Part shown: in pieces, positions 19,876 through 55,476 of the stretch | Position numbering within the stretch: position 1 is the stretch's first letter | Layout: the number at the start of each line of letters is the position of its first letter | Source of the DNA: an uncultured bacterium | Lineage (GTDB): Bacteria; Electryoneota; Tariuqbacteria; Tariuqbacterales; Tariuqbacteraceae | Direction of reading: 5' to 3' | DNA length: 64,000 bases | Assembly (NCBI GenBank): GCA_964421875.1 | Contig: CAYQZD010000004.1 | Coordinates: forward strand, 4,082 to 68,081 | Position numbers and translations under genes: made by a program | The notes under the pieces: model-generated | What the model was told of the DNA's origin: nothing | Seen by the model: the letters and a program-made list of their open reading frames with translations, nothing else | The model's database searches: none

Positions 19876-20275
19876 TAGAATATGGTTGGTTCATCCGGAA
19901 AATGGGTAGTTCAAATAACTCAAAGATAAACAGGTAGATGATGTATTTTTAAAATGAACTGATATGATTTGCATTTTATATTTATTTTACATATATTTTT
20001 TCATACTTTATCTGTTGAATACTAGTACTTAAAATTCAATAACATAGCTACATGTTAGAGTATGTTAGTTGTATAAACAGAAAAATGTACCCGGGCCAAA
20101 TCTGTTAATAATTTCATCAATTCCATGTGTTTAGCTAAATTACGAAGATTACCTTTTTCCTTGATGAAATAATTTATAATCTTGTGTCAAAACGAAAAAT
20201 ATTGGAACATCCCATGCATATAGTTGCAACCATTTCCGAATTGTCTAAGTAAAATAAATTGGGAGGTATACCGCC

Positions 20276-20896
20276 ATGGCTGATTCTGGAAAAATAATTG
20301 AAGCATTAATCCAAATTCTAGCATTGGCCGGAATTGGTTTATTTGGTAAAGCTCTGTGCCATTTTTGTACTTATATGAAGGATCTGAATAGACTAAAAAA
20401 ATTGATCATAGAGAGTAGGCCAATTCCACCAGGTCTTTGGCAAAGAATGAGGAAGCGTGAAGGATTTAGACGAGATGAACATATAACAGGCCATTATCTG
20501 ATAATAGCTTCAATGATTTACCTGTTAAAACTAGTCGTTGGAACTAATGAGTTGGGATTAAACTTCTTCACAATATCGATCGATAATAATAATACAAGAA
20601 CTCTGATAATAACAATCATCATACTTCTTGGCTTAATCCTTGGTTATATTGTTGTTCGTTTAGGTAACATCGATGCACATGGTACAAAAGAAAAAATAGT
20701 ATCAAAAAAGCAATTTATTAGTAATAAGGATGTTGCGGAAAGTAAGAAAACCTATAAGCCAATATCTAAATCTAATAAAATCAGCTTCATTCCATTCTCA
20801 ATCTTTCATGTAGTAAACACAATTGGGGTCGCTTCACTTAGCGTATCTTATTATATAGCTGATAATTTATTAAAGTTTTCAATACCCGGAGGTTGA
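20276..20896 (+). CDS. hypothetical 4-TM membrane protein (AT-rich island 1)
   Basis: GGGAGG RBS. Four predicted TM helices. No recognisable family. Low-GC codon usage. Confidence 0.5.
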   Translation: MADSGKIIEALIQILALAGIGLFGKALCHFCTYMKDLNRLKKLIIESRPIPPGLWQRMRKREGFRRDEHITGHYLIIASMIYLLKLVVGTNELGLNFFTISIDNNNTRTLIITIIILLGLILGYIVVRLGNIDAHGTKEKIVSKKQFISNKDVAESKKTYKPISKSNKISFIPFSIFHVVNTIGVASLSVSYYIADNLLKFSIPGG

Positions 20897-20897
20897 A

Positions 20898-21200
20898 ATG
20901 TTGACTCCCCTGTTATTTTTTGCCTTGCTTGGCATAATAATTGTTGTTTTCAGTATTCTTATAGACTTAGCTTTCAAAAAGTCTTTTGCAGCTAGGAAAA
21001 GGTTCCTTGTAGGAATACTACGAAAAAAAGCCTCAAAACTCACACCAGACAAGTATGCACTTACCTATTTTGCGCCAAAAATTGACAAGAGTGATTCTCC
21101 AGAAGACGGAATAGTAAAAAGTATTTCAAAAGATAATTTAGGGTTAGTGCAAGAGGAATTCATAAAGATCTTTATAAAAAACCTGAAGAGTAAAAACTAG
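20898..21200 (+). CDS. hypothetical small single-pass membrane protein (AT-rich island 1)
   Basis: GGAGG RBS, one nt after the previous stop. N-terminal TM helix, then a Lys-rich tail. Confidence 0.45.
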   Translation: MLTPLLFFALLGIIIVVFSILIDLAFKKSFAARKRFLVGILRKKASKLTPDKYALTYFAPKIDKSDSPEDGIVKSISKDNLGLVQEEFIKIFIKNLKSKN

Positions 21201-21229
21201 GTTTATTAAAAAAAGCAAGAGTACATACT

Positions 21230-21979
21230 ATGTCTGATTTAAGTAATCCCCGTTATCAATTTTTATCTGGAACATATGATTTAATAATATCAGAATCTTT
21301 AATTCATCGTGTCGATATGTTTCCATTTCCTAAGTTTCACGAAAATCAAATATCTGAAGAGGAGTTAGGGGAACTAGCAGATAGATTATCTGGAACGATT
21401 GAATATTCCAGTAATTTGCCTGATGATATATACAGTTCAATCACACATGTGGATGGCCAAGCCAACATTGTGATTAATATAAATCATGGACCAGCAGTAA
21501 TCTGGTTTTTATTAGGTCATGAAATCGGACATCTTTGGCTGCACCCCAGACTAGATCTATTTGATGTGGTAGAGTTTAGCGATATTAAATCCAGGGCATT
21601 AATACCTGAAATTAAAAAGAATGGGGAGAATTGGGATTACATACCATATAAGGTCTTAGAAGATGAAGCTAACTATTTCTCAATATGCACTTTTGTCCCC
21701 TTAAGTAAAATGGTTGAATGGTATCGTAAAGGTTCATTATGCACATCTTTTCTATCGCAGTGGGTTTTAAAATGTCTAATGGATTCGGGGAAAATTTCTA
21801 AGGAACATGATGATGGTTCTGAACGAACACCATCTAGAAGACTTGTCCAAAGGATGCGCGGCATAATGCGCAGTTTTAAGTTACGCCTTGAAATAAATAA
21901 ATTGATATTTGCGGATAGTAATGAAATGCCTAAATGGGACGATTCATTTCTTGAAGACAATTTTGTAGGTAGGGAATGA
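21230..21979 (+). CDS. HExxH zinc-metallopeptidase-domain protein, ImmA/IrrE (DUF955)-like
   Basis: LLGHEIGHLWLH fits the ImmA/IrrE HEIGH signature. No HTH partner seen. AT-rich. Confidence 0.45.
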   Translation: MSDLSNPRYQFLSGTYDLIISESLIHRVDMFPFPKFHENQISEEELGELADRLSGTIEYSSNLPDDIYSSITHVDGQANIVININHGPAVIWFLLGHEIGHLWLHPRLDLFDVVEFSDIKSRALIPEIKKNGENWDYIPYKVLEDEANYFSICTFVPLSKMVEWYRKGSLCTSFLSQWVLKCLMDSGKISKEHDDGSERTPSRRLVQRMRGIMRSFKLRLEINKLIFADSNEMPKWDDSFLEDNFVGRE

Positions 21980-22012
21980 TTATACAAATCTATTATTAGA
22001 ATAAGGTTTAGA

Positions 22013-44327: not shown

Positions 44328-44400
44328 CGCGGGGTGGAGCAGTTGGTAGCTCGTTGGGCTCATAACCCAGAGGTCGCAGGTTCGAATCCTGCCCCCGCTA
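44328..44400 (+). tRNA. tRNA-Met (CAT), initiator-type (fMet-like)
   Basis: CGCGGGGTGGAGCAGTTGGTAGCTCGTTGGGCTCATAACCCAGAGGTCGCAGGTTCGAATCCTGCCCCCGCTA is nearly identical in architecture to E. coli tRNA-fMet: unpaired position 1:72 (C1 x U72), three consecutive G:C pairs in the anticodon stem, anticodon CAT. The 3' CCA is not encoded. Confidence 0.85.
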
Positions 44401-44504
44401 CAATAGGAGGCCGGTTTATAGTAGCCGGTCTCTTGCATTTCAGTTATTCAAAAACGGTCTCTATTAGTCAAGCCCCTGCAGTACAGTACAGAATTTAAGT
44501 AATA

Positions 44505-47121: not shown

Positions 47122-47356
47122 TTTACACCTCGAGTTATTTAGGATTACTGTATTTCAGTTGTTGGCGATTGCGAAATACAGGGCTTTATCGAGGCTCAAC
47201 ACAGTATCAAATGCACCCTATCGTTTATATAATACAAAGAGAGGTTCAAAGAGTCAAGCGATGATTCGATAATATATCATTCTTTTGATTTTTCGCGTGC
47301 TATCGAAAAACGCAGATTATTGCGTGAGGCGCGGGGGAATAAGATACCGCTGTTTT

Positions 47357-47392
47357 GAATATTAAAAACGCCGGCTCGGAAACGAGCCGACG
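47357..47392 (-). terminator. rho-independent terminator ending the AT-rich three-gene island (GCCGGCTCG-gaaa-CGAGCCGAC; minus strand followed by TTTTTAATATT)
   Basis: GC-rich hairpin whose minus-strand reading is followed by a T-run, 50 nt downstream of the gene 47444 stop. Confidence 0.6.
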
Positions 47393-47443
47393 GTGGTGTT
47401 TATATAACAAAACTATAGTATGATCAATTTCTAATAAACATAG

Positions 47444-47884
47444 TTAATTGCGTTCAATTATTTCTTTTTTCGCTAAAACAGCTAAAGCGCTTCTTATCAT
47501 CTTTTTAGTAGGCTTCTCTTCTTTAGCCAACAATAATAAATTTCCATGATAAATGTTACCTTCAATAGCTCTTCTTTCATAGCCAAATGTCTCCTTAAAT
47601 CCACCAAATTGCAGATCTAGTTCATTCCTTTTTATTTTGGTTAGTCCAGCGGGAAATCGTAATTCACCAATTTCGTTTTTCTGGCAAAGCGTAAAATCCA
47701 TAGCCTTATCATCATCCTCCCAATTTATAGAACATTCCTCAAAACCATCGTTTCTCTCTGTGGCTCGCGTGAATTGGAACGCATCTAAAAAAACGGTCTT
47801 CCCACTGCTCGTAAGCTTAATATGATTCTTTGAACTTATACCCCGAATTAACTTACCCGGAAGATTATCTTTGGTAGTACTCAT
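47444..47884 (-). CDS. hypothetical protein C of AT-rich island 2 (146 aa)
   Basis: ATG at 47884. Overlaps the upstream gene by 20 nt. No family recognised. Lys-rich. Confidence 0.5.
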   Translation of the reverse strand: MSTTKDNLPGKLIRGISSKNHIKLTSSGKTVFLDAFQFTRATERNDGFEECSINWEDDDKAMDFTLCQKNEIGELRFPAGLTKIKRNELDLQFGGFKETFGYERRAIEGNIYHGNLLLLAKEEKPTKKMIRSALAVLAKKEIIERN

Positions 47885-48458
47885 ATAGTAGAAAAAAGTT
47901 GATTATATTAATCAATAAGTTAGTATCAGTTTTATTGAAATATCCATTTATTTTCATATAACCTAAATTCTCGTTGGATACTAAATACCAACCTGATTTT
48001 TCAGTATCATCCTCAAAACAAAATCCAAATCTATAATCAGGGAATATCCATTCAATAGACACGGATTCTTCATCCTCTGATAAATGAAAATAACCAAGAC
48101 TCCTGACATCAATACCTTGATTAATTATGAATAATAAATCATTCTTTAAAGTTGACAAAAAGCTTATAGCCTGCTCAGAAAGTTTTTGATTATAAGATTT
48201 CCGTATTTCCTCAATTACTTCATTCAGTTGCGCCATCCTTTCAGGATAGGTATAGCAGATTATAGAGTTCCAAGAAGATTTTGCGAAACTTCCTCTTGTA
48301 TTCGCCTCAAGAATTGGGCTTTCATATCCCTTAAAATGCTGATATGGAAATGCATCTGCATCATCCCTATCACAGTGTTTTTCAAAGTTAAAATCTTTTT
48401 CCCAGAGTTGTGATGGAGTTGTTCCGGTATCTAATTTTTGTGCTACATTTAAGCTCAT
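47865..48458 (-). CDS. hypothetical protein B of AT-rich island 2 (197 aa)
   Basis: ATGA overlap with the upstream gene stop. Acidic, aromatic-rich. No family recognised. Confidence 0.5.
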   Translation of the reverse strand: MSLNVAQKLDTGTTPSQLWEKDFNFEKHCDRDDADAFPYQHFKGYESPILEANTRGSFAKSSWNSIICYTYPERMAQLNEVIEEIRKSYNQKLSEQAISFLSTLKNDLLFIINQGIDVRSLGYFHLSEDEESVSIEWIFPDYRFGFCFEDDTEKSGWYLVSNENLGYMKINGYFNKTDTNLLINIINFFLLYEYYQR

Positions 48459-49243
48459 ATTTCTTTTGGCTCCATAGCGTTGTGCAGTTCTTCAGTAATA
48501 CACCATCTTATTAAGCGAGATGCTTGTTTGTTGAAATAGTCAAGCTTTTCCATAATAAGTTCAATATTATTGTCAATTTCTTTACTAATATAGAAATCAC
48601 TATCGATAACAAAGCACTGCTCATTTTTGGGATTCGGAACAATACCTGTCTTTATTTTAACTGTACTACCATTATTTGAAAGACTCATTTTATAACTGGA
48701 TTCGAAGTTTTCTATCTCCATACCTATGTCAGATGAACTTAGAAAACCCAGTAAATACTCATTTAGTAATTCATTCCAATTACTGTTTTCTAAGCTAAGT
48801 TCGGAACGTTCGATTACATCTATATACCTAAGTCCTATTCGGGTAAAATAAGAAGGCGAATAAACCTGCTGTAATGCATTGACGACCTTTTCAAGTTTTT
48901 CTCTAAATATTTCCCATTTTTCATAGCTAATCGTGGATAATGCCACAAAAGTTCTCGTTAGATTGACTCTCCAAGAATCATCTTTTGATTTAAATGCATA
49001 GTTCTTATTTTTCTTAAGGTTTGAGAACATCTGTGGCGCGAATTCGACGAATTCAGACGGTATTTGCTCATTACTCGGTTCCTCACTTTCTTCGAAATTA
49101 GGAAACTCGACTCTTAACAATTCTTGAAAATCCGCAGGGATTTCAGAATCTATTTTCAATATCGGAGGAAATTTTAATTGACATACCACTAATTTTAAAG
49201 GATTATGACTATAGATAACCCTTTTTACATCGGGGAAAGGCAT
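48455..49243 (-). CDS. hypothetical protein A of AT-rich island 2 (~262 aa); recalls the uncharacterised sporadically-distributed TIGR04255-like family (memory-based, unverified)
   Basis: Preferred ATG at 49243 (MPFPDVKRVIYSHNPLKLVVCQLKFPPILKI) behind an AGGAAA RBS. The ORF table extends to a TTG at 49315. Confidence 0.5.
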   Translation of the reverse strand: MPFPDVKRVIYSHNPLKLVVCQLKFPPILKIDSEIPADFQELLRVEFPNFEESEEPSNEQIPSEFVEFAPQMFSNLKKNKNYAFKSKDDSWRVNLTRTFVALSTISYEKWEIFREKLEKVVNALQQVYSPSYFTRIGLRYIDVIERSELSLENSNWNELLNEYLLGFLSSSDIGMEIENFESSYKMSLSNNGSTVKIKTGIVPNPKNEQCFVIDSDFYISKEIDNNIELIMEKLDYFNKQASRLIRWCITEELHNAMEPKEI

Positions 49244-49390
49244 TTTAAGGTTTCCTAATATAAGGATATAGATGGGATTATAAACATAATGTTGAACATA
49301 CACTATATTAAACAAAAAGTCAAGTTTTAGGTTCCATATGTTCTACAGAAATATCAGTCACTTCGGAATGTTGAGATAAATATCACAATC

Positions 49391-51424
49391 CTACTCCCCC
49401 TCCCCCATATACTTATCGAACCAAGCGTGGTCCCATTTCATTTTCGCCAGGCGGTGCTTGTAGGTGGAAAGGCCGTGATGCGCGCCGGGGTAAATTATCA
49501 GTTCGCAGGGGACATCGAGATAATGATGGAGCGCTCGAAACAGCGCTTTGCTGTGAGAAGGGGGCACTCGGGGGTCGTCCCCGCCCACATGAATCAAAGT
49601 CGCGGTCTTAATACCCGGTTTCAAAGAATAAAGGGGTGAAGCGCTCCGGTACAGGTCCGGATTCTCCCAGGGCAAACCCTGCTGGAAGTTAATCACGTGC
49701 CCCGGCGTGTCCTCCTCGCCCCACTGCATCGCCATATCGATAATCCCCGCGCCGCTGGAGGCGACTTTGAAACGGTTGGTGGCAAGCAGGCAGTTGGTGA
49801 GGTACCCGCCGTTGCTCCAACCCATCACGCCCAGTCGTCCCGGATCGGCGATACCGCGTTCGATTAACGCGTCCACCCCAGTGAGTATATCCTTCACATC
49901 GTAGTCGTTTTCGTGCCCGACAAGGTCGGTCATAAACTTGTCGCCGTAGCCAGTGGAGCCGCGGTAATTGGGGGAAAACATCGCGTATCCTTTAGCCGCA
50001 AAAGCGGCGCGGCCGTAAATCCAGAAGAGGAAGCAGTATTTTTCCGAAGCGGTCGGTCCGCCGTGCAGATTAACCAGCAGAGGCAGCTTTTCACCGCCCT
50101 TGTAATCGGGGGGAAGTTCGAGGATGCCTTCCACCGTGTCGCCTTCGGCTCCCTGCCACTTGACAATGGAGATTTGGGGCAGTTTCCAGGCGTCATACTG
50201 GGGATTGACATTGGTGATGCGATTGAACTTTCCCCTGGAATTGTATAGCGCCAAATCGCGGTAATAGGTCATCTCACTCTGTATCGCGATGAGTCCGCCC
50301 TTCGTCCCTATAAAATCGAAACCGTCGATAACCACATCCCCCGGCGTGAGAGTTTTGCTGGCGCCGGTTTTACAGTCGATGGCGTAAATCAGCGTGCGCG
50401 CTTTATAGTCTCCGAGGAAACAAATCGTCTCCTTGCCGGGGAGCCATTTGAGCCCTCCCACCGCCGACGCTATCGGGGGCCTCTGCAGTCTGCGGATTTT
50501 AACATCTCCGCTCCTGCCGAATCCCGCGACCAGGATTTCCATCGGGTACCCGTCGAAGTCGACAGTGAACGCCAGCTTATTCCCGTCACTCGACCAGGCG
50601 AGGTTTCCCAACCAGCCGTAAGGGGAAGGGGCGTCCTCGCGCCACAGCTTATCCGGTAAAGTCTGCACTTCCCCGGTGGAAACGTCGAACACTTCCACCT
50701 CGGAGCCGCCTTCGTGTGAGATTAGTAACTCGTCCGGGTCGGTAATCATCGCCACCTTTTGCCCGTCCGGCGACACTTCGAAATATCGAATGAAGCGCTC
50801 CGAGGCGACAAGTTTGGTTTCGCGCCAGGTTGTGAGGTCAAGCTTCCAAAGCTCAGACGCTTGATAGATACCGCGGCCGAACTCGAGTTCATCTTTGTAT
50901 TCTGAGCGAAGTTCCTTCCACTCATCGATAACGCGGTCCTTGCTCTTAGTAAAGAAAATGGTGAAACCGTCATTTAACACCTGATAGTCGTCGATTCCAC
51001 CCGGAACTCGGGTTATCGGCTTAAGTTCGCTGCCGTCAGAGCGGATATTCCACACCTGGGATTTGCCGTCGAAAGGTGGATTTTTCTCGCCCTCGCGTTC
51101 GAAATGACCGACGAAGTAGATTGTCTTCCCATCCGGACTCCATTGCGGATTGTATTCATTACCCATATCGGAGGTCAATCTCAGGACAGCCTTGGTTTTG
51201 GTGTCCGCCATCCACAAATCGTAGTTGCGTCCGTCCTTCTGCTTGTCCCAGCGGTATTCGACATAGGCGGTATGTCTGCCGTCGGGGGAAGCGGCGCAAT
51301 CCATAATGAAAGCTTGAGTCAGGTAGTCCGCATAATCGATGTCGTGGTCCCGCTCCACGCTTTGACTGAAAGCGGCGGCGGCCAGAATAACAGTTAAAAG
51401 TACTAACCAGCGGAGGTTCTTCAT
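49391..51424 (-). CDS. S9 family serine peptidase with N-terminal TolB-like beta-propeller (secreted)
   Basis: 677 aa. Signal peptide. GWSNGGY nucleophile motif. HGGP and DDPRVP motifs of the prolyl oligopeptidase family. Confidence 0.85.
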   Translation of the reverse strand: MKNLRWLVLLTVILAAAAFSQSVERDHDIDYADYLTQAFIMDCAASPDGRHTAYVEYRWDKQKDGRNYDLWMADTKTKAVLRLTSDMGNEYNPQWSPDGKTIYFVGHFEREGEKNPPFDGKSQVWNIRSDGSELKPITRVPGGIDDYQVLNDGFTIFFTKSKDRVIDEWKELRSEYKDELEFGRGIYQASELWKLDLTTWRETKLVASERFIRYFEVSPDGQKVAMITDPDELLISHEGGSEVEVFDVSTGEVQTLPDKLWREDAPSPYGWLGNLAWSSDGNKLAFTVDFDGYPMEILVAGFGRSGDVKIRRLQRPPIASAVGGLKWLPGKETICFLGDYKARTLIYAIDCKTGASKTLTPGDVVIDGFDFIGTKGGLIAIQSEMTYYRDLALYNSRGKFNRITNVNPQYDAWKLPQISIVKWQGAEGDTVEGILELPPDYKGGEKLPLLVNLHGGPTASEKYCFLFWIYGRAAFAAKGYAMFSPNYRGSTGYGDKFMTDLVGHENDYDVKDILTGVDALIERGIADPGRLGVMGWSNGGYLTNCLLATNRFKVASSGAGIIDMAMQWGEEDTPGHVINFQQGLPWENPDLYRSASPLYSLKPGIKTATLIHVGGDDPRVPPSHSKALFRALHHYLDVPCELIIYPGAHHGLSTYKHRLAKMKWDHAWFDKYMGEGE

Positions 51425-51942
51425 TTATATCTCCTGATTAACAGATTTTAAGTAAAATTTAAATGTATTTTTACAAGTTAAGTCGAATTATTGACATTTT
51501 CAAATGTCATAAGGCTTTGGAGGTCGGAAGAATCATACTTATAATTTGAAAGAGCTGTTTCCCTGCTTGTTTTCATATCATAATCCGATTCAATGCTTTT
51601 ATAACTAGATTCCATAGCGCAAATAGACCGACACACTCCCTCAGCATCATCAAGCGCTACTACTTGTTCGAATGCTGGAATAATCAATAAAAAACTGTAC
51701 TGTGAATTTTTCTATTGCATATTCCCTTCTTTTCATTTATATTCAATGATATAAGTCTCAATTCTTTTTAATTCCTTGACACCTATTCCTCGCTTTACCC
51801 CGAATTCACCAAATACTCTGACTCAACGCAAATAGAATAGTATAAAATCGACAACAAAACTCCCGCAGAAATGTCGGATTTTTTTATTTATCCACATCAT
51901 ATTTTTTTCCCAGGGATAATCTCACATTGAGGAGGTTTATCT

Positions 51943-54900
51943 ATGCAAAAACCCCGTATACTAATTGTTTCAGATGTGCCTGGAATCTCAAAGGAAATCA
52001 GGAAATTCCTGGTGCAGATAGGATACGAAATCAGCGGGATCGCGAGTTCCGGTGAAGCTGCAATAAAACATACCGAGGAACACACCCCTGACATAATCCT
52101 CATCGACATTGAGATGAAAGGAGAAATTGACGGAATGGAAGCCGCCGAAAACCTCAAAAAAAATCTCAATGTCCCTATCATTTATTTGACCGATTACTCT
52201 GATAAAAACACTATCGAGAGAGCTAAAGCTTCACCGCCCAACGGATACATCCTAAAACCGTTCACCGTGAAGGAAATTGAGACTTCGATTGAAATAGCCC
52301 TGCAAAATCACAGTGTTGAACGGAAACTCCGCGAAAGCGAAGCGAACTACCGCAGGGTGGTGGAAAACGCCACAGAAGCCATTTTCATCACCGATAAGAA
52401 CGGCAATATTAAATACGCGAATCCCGCCGGCTTGAAAGTTTCATGCTATACTCTTGATGAGCTAAAAAAACTCAATTACCTGGATATCGCCTCGCCGGAA
52501 TATCGGAAACGCCTGCAATTTCATTATATGCGCCAGTTTTTAAAGTTAAAGCCCGTTAGTTATATCGAATATCCTTACATTAACAAAGAAGGTAAGACTC
52601 TGTGGTTAGCTCAAAACTCTACGTTACGGATGGAAGGTGATAAGGTAATAGGGTTTGAAATCGTTACTCGGGATATAACCGAGCGGAAAAACATGGAGGT
52701 GGCTTTAAGGTCAAGCGAGGAGAGATACCGGATAATCACAGAAAACACCAGTGATTTAATCGCAATCACTACTTTCGACAGGAAAGTGAAGTACTTATAT
52801 TTAAGTCCTTCTAACCTAAGATTGCTGGGGTATAAGCCTGAAGAATGGTTAGGAAAATCAGCCCTTGACGCCATTCATCCAGAAGACAAGAAAAGGCTGG
52901 CGCCGCTCTTAGGGAGATATATTAATATGAAAAAGAACATATTATTAAGCCGACGCATGAGCGAGATATTCGAGAATATTGAATACAGGATGAAAGACAA
53001 AACCGGAGAGTGGAGATGGCTACAAAGCACCGTCAACGTAATCGACGACAGGCTCCTTTTTGTGACAAAAGACATAACCGACCGTAAGCGGACGGAAAAG
53101 GAGCTTCAGGAATCGGAAAGGAAATACAAGACCATTGTCGAGGATTCTTCAATAGGTATTTATTACAACGACTTCTCAGGAAATTTTCTTTACGGAAATA
53201 AGAAGGCGGAGGAGTTGATTGGCTATAAACGGGAGGAATTAATCGGGAAGAATTTCTTGAAATTAAAATTACTTGACGCCACAGGAATTTCGAGGGCAAT
53301 CAAGCTTCTGGCTCTGAACAGAATCGGCAAACCGACAGGGCCCGATGAGTTTAGATTAGTCCGTAAGGATGGAACACAAATCACGGTAGAAATATCCACC
53401 AGAATGCTCACCATTAACCAGCAAAAAGTCGTTATGGGGATGGTGCAGGATATCACTGAACGCCTCCGTATGGAGAAAATGCAGTTGGTCTTATATCGTA
53501 TCGCGAATTCAGTGAACACGGCAAAGAATATGAATGAACTCTATAAAACAATCCATTCGCAGCTGGGAATAATCCTCAACACCACTAATTTTTACATCGC
53601 TCTTTATGATAAGGACACCGGTATTATTCAACTGCCCTATGTTGTTGATGAGAAAACCGAAATTATTCACTTCCCAGCTAAGAAAACGCTTACTTATCAT
53701 CTAATAAAGAATAATAAACCACTACTAGTGACGGAAAAAGAAATATCCGGGATGGTGGAAACAGGTGAGGTCGAGTTGGTCAGTTCCAGGCCGCAGGTAT
53801 GGCTGGGAGTGCCGCTTGAAGTGGAGGGCGAGGTTGTAGGCGCAGTAGTGCTTCAAAGTTATACCGACCCGCATCAATATACAAATAAAGACCTTGAACT
53901 CCTTAAATTTGTATCGAAGCAAATAGCTCTCGCTATTGAGCGGAAACGTTCGGAAGAAGCGATTCGAGACGCAGAAGAGAAATACCGTTCGCTGATAGAG
54001 AACTCCGACGATGCAGTCTATCTGCTGGTCGATGATAAATTCGAAGTCATAAACAAAAGATTCTCAGAGTTGTTCGGTCTGAAAATCGAGGAGATTCAAT
54101 CCCCCGATTTTGACTTTAGAAACTTAGTCGCGCCCGAAAGTATGGAAATAATCGAAGAGAGGGAACGGATTATCACCCAAGGAGAATCTCCCCCTTCCCA
54201 GTATGAATTCACCGTAGTCTCTAAAAAAGGTAAACGGATCGAAGTTCAAGCGTCGGTGACTTACGTCCCCTATAAAGGGAAGACCGCAACGCAGGGAATT
54301 ATCAGAGATTTAACCGAAAGAAAGAGACTGGAGGACCAATTGCGCCAGGCTCAAAAACAGGAAGCTATCGGCGCTCTGGCTGGTGGAATCGCCCATGACT
54401 TCAACAACCTGCTGGCGGGGATTATGGGCAGCGTGGAATTGGCTATGAAGAAACTGGGCCAAGGGCACACTATCAATGAACTGCTTGAGCGGGCCGCAAT
54501 AAGCGCAGAAAGGGCATCGGAACTGACAAGCCAGCTTCTGGCTTTCGGCAGCCAGCGAATGGAAAAGCCCCTGCCCTTGAATATCAACGAATGTATCGAT
54601 GAAGCATTCCAGTTATTGAGGCGCACTATCAGTCCCTTAGTGGAGATGAAGAGCGATAAGAATCCAAGCGTGCGCACGGTCAAAGGGGACGCCGGTCAGT
54701 TGAGTCAGGTCTTAATCAACCTGATACTGAACGCGCGTGACGCAATGCCCGAAGGCGGAGTTGTTTTGGTAAAAAGCGACAATGTTACTATCGACCAGGA
54801 CTATAGCGCCAACCACCCTGAAACGGAAGCGGGCGAATACATCTGCCTTTCAGTCTGCGATAACGGCGTTGGCATACCCTCCGATGTTCTACCCCACATC

Positions 54901-55476
54901 TTCGACCCGTTTTTTACCACCAAAGATATCGGTGAAGGCACAGGATTGGGGCTGGCGATGGTTTACGGGATAGTCAAGGGGCACGAAGGTTGGATAGATG
55001 TGGAGAGCGCAATGGGCCGGGGGACTACTTTCAAGCTTTATTTCCCGACGGTGGAGGAAAAACCTGCGCATCCGGTTGAACTAAAAGCGTCGGATATGGT
55101 GGGAGACAGCGAAACGATTCTCCTGGTTGACGACGAAGCTGTAGTGCGAGAGATGGGGAAATCGATTTTAGAAAGCTTCGGCTATAAAGTATTACTGGCC
55201 AATGATGGATTTGAAGCTATGCAGGTTTACGAGAAAATGATGGATAAAATCGAATTGGTGATTCTGGACCTGCTGATGCCTAAAAGGTCCGGTAAAGAAA
55301 TACTCAAGGAATTACTGATCACAAATCCGAATTTGAAGATAATTATTTCCAGCGGATATAGTCAGATTGGGGTAATCCAGAACTTGTTGGAAATCGGAGC
55401 CAGGGGATTCATTCCAAAACCTTATCACATCAATGAAATGCTGAGTTTAATCAGGAAAGTGTTAGAAGGAAAGTAA
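51943..55476 (+). CDS. hybrid sensor histidine kinase/response regulator (REC - multiple PAS - GAF - HisKA - HATPase_c - REC)
   Basis: 1177 aa. GGAGG RBS. N-terminal receiver (ILIVSDVPG...DIILIDIEM). Repeated PAS blocks (TERK/TDRK linkers). GAF-like region. H-box [14 protein letters not shown]. HATPase G-boxes. C-terminal receiver ([11 protein letters not shown]...ILDLLMP). Confidence 0.85.

Follow-up and report, generated by a model that had tools for sequence, protein, structure and literature searches.

A widespread three-gene cassette headed by a TIGR04255 protein in an uncultured Electryoneota bacterium, a candidate toxin-based conflict module with a predicted ADP-ribosyltransferase-fold protein

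The three-gene block and its conservation

The window, a 64,000-nucleotide stretch of DNA from an uncultured bacterium (GTDB lineage Bacteria; Electryoneota; Tariuqbacteria; Tariuqbacterales; Tariuqbacteraceae; GenBank assembly GCA_964421875.1, contig CAYQZD010000004.1, positions 4,082 to 68,081), contains an AT-rich block of about 2 kb between a gene for a cargo protein of the type IX secretion system (T9SS) and a gene for an S9 peptidase. The block carries three tightly packed minus-strand genes, here called A, B and C, which encode proteins of 262, 197 and 146 amino acids (aa), respectively (Table 1). The G+C content (GC) was 0.29-0.35 in 400-nt windows across positions 47200-49400, as compared with 0.54-0.58 on either side. 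Over the block as a whole (47393-49390), GC was 0.329, against a mean of 0.488 for the window (z = -3.6 among the 2-kb windows of the window) and 0.55 for the flanking genes. The GC at third codon positions (GC3) of genes A, B and C was 0.30, 0.26 and 0.31, in comparison with 0.63 and 0.68 in the genes for the T9SS cargo and the S9 peptidase, respectively. Comparably AT-rich DNA was found at only one other place in the window, at approximately 20-22 kb. The original prediction, made from the letters of the sequence and a list of its open reading frames (ORFs), had described by eye an AT-rich block with three overlapping genes, an ATGA overlap, a 20-nt overlap and a GC-rich hairpin terminator; the coordinates agree with this description, the hairpin is present, and the base composition and codon usage are indeed sharply unlike the background.

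The listed ORF of gene A runs further upstream, to a TTG codon; we placed the start at the ATG, because M1 and the MPFP N-terminus are kept in homologs. In the NCBI public record, the product of gene C is an 85-aa protein starting at M62, whereas Logan calls the 146-aa form. We regard the 146-aa call as right, because the 85-aa version drops the first two conserved motifs of the family (R14-G15 and ExSxxWxD). Upstream of gene A lies a promoter-like site; the region holds 14 sites of this kind, as compared with 9.1 expected from shuffled sequences. No direct, inverted or tandem repeats marking element boundaries were found in or around the island, nor was any Rfam RNA. A tRNA-Met gene (44328-44401, plus strand) lies approximately 3 kb from the island, with the T9SS-cargo gene between them, and is not evidently an integration site.

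With B and C as queries, word-indexed searches retrieved no proteins other than the window's own; tblastn and hidden Markov models (HMMs), applied at the loci found with A, recovered both families. The closest homolog of A (63% identity) lies on a 2.3-kb contig of the same architecture, with the same -4 and -20 nt overlaps, on which B and C are 42% and 51% identical to those of the window. In the best 80 genome loci found from A, tblastn and iterated HMMs detected B in 38 loci and C in 33 ORF-chain calls, always directly downstream of A; at three Poribacteria loci, C was found by tblastn after a longer gap. When the search started from C in metagenome contigs, B was present in all 63 loci with at least 450 nt upstream, and A in 51 of the 53 loci whose upstream sequence reached 1 kb or more. 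The two exceptions were a locus in which an IS630-like insertion had removed A, and a B-C pair lacking A. We counted 92 complete A-B-C trios in approximately 20 bacterial lineages, including Anaerolineae, Thermodesulfobacteriota, Acidobacteriota, Planctomycetota, Bacillota, Bacteroidota, Ignavibacteriota, Gemmatimonadota, Fibrobacter, NC10 and Poribacteria, and in two archaeal phyla, represented by metagenome-assembled genomes (MAGs) of Thermoplasmatota and Methanobacteriota. The trio is thus syntenic elsewhere, in unrelated phyla. Pairwise divergences of the three proteins were correlated at r 0.81-0.83 (0.81 for B and C; Mantel test, 0 of 2000 permutations). A, B and C are an obligate, co-inherited unit, within which the small, adjacent, overlapping and co-inherited genes B and C have the architecture of type II toxin-antitoxin genes.

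These data bear on the alternative that the three ORFs arose by chance in AT-rich DNA that is junk or decayed. Chance gives few stop-free frames in AT-rich DNA, and the public record gives C only as the 85-aa fragment. However, all three proteins have hundreds of homologs, in which motifs, order and overlaps are conserved, and the structural models of A and C reached predicted local distance difference test (pLDDT) values of 88 and 96. The homolog and synteny data refute this explanation, and we give it practically no weight. The original prediction had named no family with confidence for any of the three proteins. Indeed, B and C match no curated family, and none of the three proteins matches a housekeeping family, but homologs of both B and C proved to be numerous and were invariably part of the same operon.

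Protein families and predicted folds

Gene A matched the NCBIfam family TIGR04255 across profile positions 2-252 of 252, with a score of 161.9 bits (cut-off 30; E 2.4e-47), as the original prediction had suggested, and its homologs carry this name in NCBI, JGI and RefSeq records. The word-indexed search gave 644 homologs at approximately 50% identity in KSB1, Zixibacteria, Desulfobacterales, Anaerolineae, Dehalococcoidia and other groups, and relatives were detected in 364 genomes by a pattern scan in which each species was represented by a single genome. A search for a Pfam family and for a sequence relative in the PDB gave none for gene A, and no mention of TIGR04255, IPR026349 or CHP04255 was found in the literature searched. 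A match to phrog_5464 (E 3.5e-4) was treated as noise. The fold matches of the model (pLDDT 88) were guanidino kinases, AdoMetDC, TBP and similar proteins, with kinases, ligases and synthetases among them; SecB was absent from these matches. The model shows A as a pseudo-twofold alpha/beta sandwich, in which the sheet is open and antiparallel and which resembles the guanidino kinases. A sheet of this kind binds ATP in the kinases, ligases and synthetases among the matches. In 97 family members, 17 of them at only 20-30% identity, R135-x-G-L-R139-Y140, D214-x-D216 and P48 were absolutely invariant, and the RxGLRY and DxD motifs sit on predicted strands 135-144 and 209-219. With two arginines and two aspartates fixed on it, the sheet may carry a phosphate- or metal-binding site. 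A is the slowest-evolving member of the trio, with a mean divergence of 0.53.

Gene C gave a model of high confidence (pLDDT 95.8) with the split beta-sheet of the ADP-ribosyltransferase (ART) fold. In the fold comparison, the figures listed were 6.9, 5.9 and 4.9 for Tpt1/KptA, 6.4 for the type VI secretion system toxin Tse2, 5.1 for AvrPphF, 5.0 and 4.1 for RES toxins, 5.0, 4.9 and 4.0 for DarT, 5.0 for TreX, 4.6 for CARDS, pertussis S1, ArtA and Scabin, 4.5 for NarE, 4.2 for MbcT and SdeC, and 4.1 for OspC3. C is therefore predicted to be an ART-fold protein, like the ADP-ribosylating toxins. The conserved residues of the family, all of them present in the window copy, are R14-G15, E50xS52xxW55xD57, G80, Y102-E103-R104 and N110xY112-H113-G114-N115; these residues are polar and look catalytic. 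S52 is invariant, R14 and E103 are nearly so, and the three occupy consecutive predicted strands, with spacings of 38 and 51 residues. Judged from the predicted strands, this order resembles that of the R-S-E class of ARTs, of which cholera toxin, with R7, S61 and E112, is a member. Y112-H113-G114, although late in the chain, recalls the H-G motif of the H-Y-E class.

Neither the C of the window nor its relatives, of which 30-32 were also searched, matched Pfam, NCBIfam, PADLOC or PHROG, and profiles built from 30 and from 113 sequences found no match among PDB sequences. A weak single match of C to AriA (E 0.0065) was treated as noise, as were those to DUF6265 and Thoc2. An HMMER scan of 1.84 billion cluster representatives gave 495 relatives, nearly all of them free-standing proteins of approximately 140 aa; the mean divergence of C (0.60) is intermediate within the trio. 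On the strength of the model, C is a new ART-fold family without detectable sequence similarity to a known ART.

The N-terminus of B is variable and probably disordered. A helical middle part follows, and then a conserved C-terminal domain, in which E136-W137, R143, G145, S155 and W157 are conserved. Its family was seen only downstream of TIGR04255 genes, and no match was obtained in Pfam, NCBIfam, PADLOC, PHROG or PDB sequences for the window protein or for the 30-32 relatives searched with it. B is the fastest-evolving protein of the trio, with a mean divergence of 0.72. Its overlap with C from the upstream side, its fast evolution, its strict co-occurrence with C and its replacement whenever C is replaced (see below) are traits expected of a neutralizer or adaptor, and we regard B as the putative cognate neutralizer or adaptor of C.

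Exchangeable partners, mobility and decay

We refer to the cassette with A, B and C as in the window as type 1. Among the best 80 genome loci, those with an A below approximately 43% identity carried a different pair, a protein of approximately 110 aa (37 loci) followed by one of approximately 195 aa (35 loci), in hosts that include cyanobacteria, Acidobacteriota, Planctomycetota and Nitrospira. In these type-2 cassettes, the QDCDLxxD, ERYHF and SPYLEH motifs of the longer protein are invariant, and neither protein matched Pfam or PADLOC. Since hhalign detected no relationship between B or C and the respective type-2 counterpart, we consider the variants to be replacements and not divergent orthologs. 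In a third type, on five IMG/VR viral contigs (L101, L103, L105, L106 and L108), an A gene of 21-28% identity is followed by a protein of approximately 165 aa and an HNH nuclease of approximately 225 aa with the motifs CxxC...DHxxPK...CCxxCNxRK; the Pfam HNH match was above the cut-off in L103 (24.1 bits) and weaker in two others. In the cassettes of Burkholderia phages and of a Rhizobium plasmid, the third proteins are related to each other and have a GLTC[SA]T motif in common; they may be cysteine hydrolases. On plasmids of Acinetobacter, Rhodococcus, Vibrio and Chroococcidiopsis (L120, L207, L208 and L209, respectively), A is followed by an annotated helix-turn-helix (HTH) regulator and then by a hypothetical protein of 275-305 aa, the place of the latter being taken by an ISL3 element in Rhodococcus. 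Conflict systems, such as CBASS, retrons, Lamassu and the toxin-antitoxin-chaperone (TAC) systems, typically exchange their enzymatic effectors while one component stays constant.

In 70 of 71 loci, the cassette had a lower GC than its flanks (mean difference 0.09), and the neighboring genes differ from locus to locus. Between a MAG of Thermodesulfobacteriota and one of Anaerolineae, A and C each reached 78% identity, a cross-phylum value that depends on the binning of the MAGs. Genes of the A family were found on 29 IMG/VR viral contigs. Seven P2-sized Burkholderia phages carry the cassette between the integrase gene and an annotated toxin-antidote pair, and the Rhizobium plasmid copy adjoins a multiubiquitin-ThiF-DUF6527 system and an IS110 element. 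Judged from composition and distribution, the block is a self-contained, horizontally transferred and widespread three-gene operon, and the horizontal acquisition proposed by the original prediction is thus upheld.

A minority of the type-1 flanks hold genes for type IIG restriction-modification, MADS, a DISARM methylase, AriA-like proteins or an AbiEii-like ATPase, and one holds a phage portal gene. In a Poribacteria-like lineage (L088, L121, L026, L034 and L039), the type-1 cassette lies directly upstream of an MmeI-type restriction-modification gene of approximately 1200 aa. The left flank is conserved in these relatives, whereas beyond the MmeI-type gene they differ, with TIR_2 and Schlafen/AlbA genes in one case, and a ThsA-macro (Thoeris-like) gene and a transposase gene in another. 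From its gene content, this neighborhood looks like a variable defense island. DUF4377 matched 5 of the 149 flanking ORFs of type-1 loci.

Several copies are damaged. C is frameshifted in one locus (L003), truncated in a second (L063), and ends short of the NPYHGN motif in the copy of a KSB1 MAG (L084, the same locus as L183), and in all three A and B are intact. At a further locus, an IS630-like transposase gene stands in place of A and the start of B. An intact C without the conserved domain of B was seen at no locus, and B and C were retained without A in two loci. This pattern would agree with a C that is toxic and is neutralized by B without the help of A. We considered in this context an accessory operon with a non-toxic C, which would be either a Tpt1/KptA-like enzyme for NAD+-dependent processing or capping of RNA or DNA ends, which would work with an ATP-dependent A in nucleic-acid repair or modification, or a non-catalytic ART-fold protein. 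The small size of C, the swapping of effectors and the repeated loss of C speak against an end-modification or repair operon, and we consider this explanation improbable.

Two further AT-rich stretches of the window may be recorded. A second island, at 20001-22000 (GC 0.32-0.34, GC3 0.26-0.34), contains three tightly packed plus-strand genes, and its 249-aa protein carries a HEIGH (HExxH metallopeptidase-like) motif and has no PDB sequence match; from composition and gene packing, this island may be another acquired accessory cassette. The intergenic stretch 51425-51942 is also AT-rich (GC approximately 0.33), and the adjoining gene for a 1177-aa hybrid sensor kinase/response regulator (51943-55476) has a GC of 0.45 and a GC3 of 0.52, below those of the neighboring genes.

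Table 1. Coordinates of the cassette, of other features of the window and of related loci (L numbers).
Feature	Locus	Coordinates	Strand	Remarks
AT-rich block	window	47393..49390		between T9SS-cargo start codon (47121) and S9 peptidase stop (49391)
Gene A	window	48455..49243	-	TIGR04255 protein, 262 aa from ATG; constant first gene of cassette
Gene B	window	47865..48458	-	197 aa; variable N-terminus and conserved C-terminal domain (EWIFxDFRIGF...SGWYLVSN); ATGA overlap with A
Gene C	window	47444..47884	-	146 aa; predicted ART-fold effector; 20-nt overlap with B
Promoter-like site TTGACT-17-TATGTT	window	49295..49323	-	52 nt 5' of gene A start; consensus match only
Intrinsic-terminator-like hairpin	window	47359..47392	-	stem 47392..47369, 10 bp (8 G-C), loop TTTC, T run; 52 nt past C stop
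Second-island ORF 1	window	20276-20896	+	small, predicted membrane-spanning
Second-island ORF 2	window	20898-21200	+	small, predicted membrane-spanning
Second-island ORF 3	window	21230-21979	+	249 aa
Cassette and MmeI-type neighborhood	L088	10001-19382		
Cassette and MmeI-type neighborhood	L121	8001-16795		
Type-2 cassettes (L023-L082), example	L060	6779-7150, 7171-7770		
Type-2 cassettes (L023-L082), example	L053	6800-7141, 7146-7733		
Burkholderia phage vB_FKKS3 cassette	L118	3483-5513		
Rhizobium plasmid pCB3060_2 cassette	L119	4001-6174		
Frameshifted C	L003	1786-2225		
C cut before NPYHGN	L084 = L183	11387-11716		
IS630-like transposase in place of A and start of B	L148	276-1378		

Proposed function and comparison with known systems

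Judged from its genes and their exchange, the cassette is most likely a modular toxin-based conflict cassette, made up of two undescribed protein families (B and C) and a third that is named but uncharacterized (A). We lean, with modest confidence, towards the reading that it is a tripartite toxin-antitoxin or abortive-infection module. C would be an NAD+-using toxin, acting either by ADP-ribosylation of a protein or nucleic-acid target or by consumption of NAD+, and B, made from the overlapping upstream frame, would hold C inactive. A, which is common to all variants, may bind a phosphorylated or nucleotide ligand on its open beta-sheet, through RxGLRY and DxD, and may couple a trigger, such as phage infection, to the release of the effector. 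Of this scheme, the analysis documents the genes, their co-inheritance, the predicted folds, the exchange of effectors and the distribution on mobile DNA, whereas we infer the toxicity of C, its neutralization by B, the role of A and an anti-phage function. The predicted ART fold of C, the swapping of effectors and the contexts in phages, plasmids and among defense genes lend support to the defense or toxin-antitoxin type of function that the original prediction had put forward.

Several observations weigh against this reading. The PADLOC search proposed by the original prediction brought no support: no model of PADLOC-DB v2.0.0 matched the cassette proteins, and the proteins of the window and 20 variant proteins gave only noise-level matches (E at least 0.006). 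B has no recognizable antitoxin or DNA-binding domain, and the ART, RES, DarT and Tpt1 models of Pfam matched neither C nor 30 of its relatives. The flanks of type-1 cassettes are heterogeneous and mostly housekeeping, with few defense genes, and homologs of type-1 C were found in no sequenced plasmid or cultured phage. An enrichment of the cassette in defense islands is at most suggested by its neighbors, because most type-1 flanks are housekeeping and only a minority are defense genes. The dependence of the cross-phylum identities on MAG binning also belongs here, and the decay counts are small.

A plain addiction module, which would stabilize mobile DNA by post-segregational killing, with A as a mere operon regulator and no part in phage defense, would have the same architecture. 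Copies on conjugative plasmids and temperate phages, and the many chromosomal copies amid housekeeping genes and far from defense genes, are in keeping with such a role. On the other hand, A is the best-conserved and the sole constant component, with invariant arginine and aspartate motifs, which is unusual for a mere operon regulator, and restriction-modification, TIR and ThsA-macro genes are the direct neighbors of some copies. We regard an addiction role of this kind as rather unlikely, although addiction and defense are compatible roles that do not exclude each other, and the two readings overlap.

The reading of the cassette as a toxin-antitoxin or abortive-infection module may be extended, although in this wider form we find it doubtful and offer it only tentatively. 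TIGR04255 may be the conserved sensing or enzymatic core, binding ATP or another nucleotide, of undescribed tripartite immune (abortive-infection) systems of bacteria and archaea, which would combine it with exchangeable adaptor-effector pairs (an ART-fold toxin, an HNH nuclease, a probable cysteine hydrolase or an HTH-linked effector) and be spread by phages, plasmids and islands; the cassette of the window would be the ART-type member. No published description of the cassette was found, and "undescribed" here means not found in PADLOC v2, in the other libraries used here or in the literature searched. TIGR04255, long listed as sporadically distributed and of unknown function, gains a context as the head of a three-gene operon with an exchangeable effector in the last gene. 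If the function lies in defense or toxin-antitoxin action, the cassette would add a widespread family (relatives of A in 364 species genomes; C in 495 sequence clusters, archaea included), a new small ART enzyme, and a constant component of a new type, kinase-like in its fold.

Among the known systems, DarTG, the RES-Xre pairs (ParST and MbcTA) and Tse2-Tsi2 differ from the cassette in that the partner of C is neither a macrodomain nor an Xre-HTH nor a Tsi2-like protein, B being a new family, and in that the cassette has an extra, obligatory first gene. The combination of a DarT-family toxin with a macrodomain antitoxin that defines DarTG was not found, and C matched neither the RES nor the DarT model of Pfam. 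C also lacks the features of Tpt1/KptA, namely the two-lobed enzyme and the Tpt1 match in Pfam. Tpt1 requires an N-terminal RNA-binding lobe, and C is unlike a full Tpt1 because 146 aa are too short to hold this lobe as well. For A, the phosphagen (guanidino) kinases and the protein-arginine kinase McsB are among the closest known systems. With CBASS, retrons and Lamassu the cassette shares a layout of one conserved gene (A) and alternative effectors in one position, namely ART-fold proteins, HNH nucleases, and the QDCDL-motif and GLTC-motif proteins; however, A is unrelated to cyclases, reverse transcriptases and SMC proteins, and the middle gene changes along with the effector.

The closest characterized analogue in logic is CmdTAC, included in the PADLOC library as PD-T4-9; no model of that library matches the three proteins. 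In CmdTAC, a chaperone is reported to sense the phage capsid, the antitoxin is degraded and the ART toxin modifies mRNA; the third protein senses infection and controls the release of the toxin (PMC11618068). Both are three-gene operons with a small ART or ART-fold effector, a neutralizer (putative in the cassette) and a third protein. The two differ in gene order and have no sequence relationship, and the third component of CmdTAC is a SecB-like chaperone, whereas that of the cassette is the TIGR04255 protein, encoded first in the operon, which has a guanidino-kinase-like predicted fold and not the SecB-like component of the TAC systems. TAC systems in general join a single constant component to varying toxin-antitoxin pairs, a point of resemblance to the cassette.

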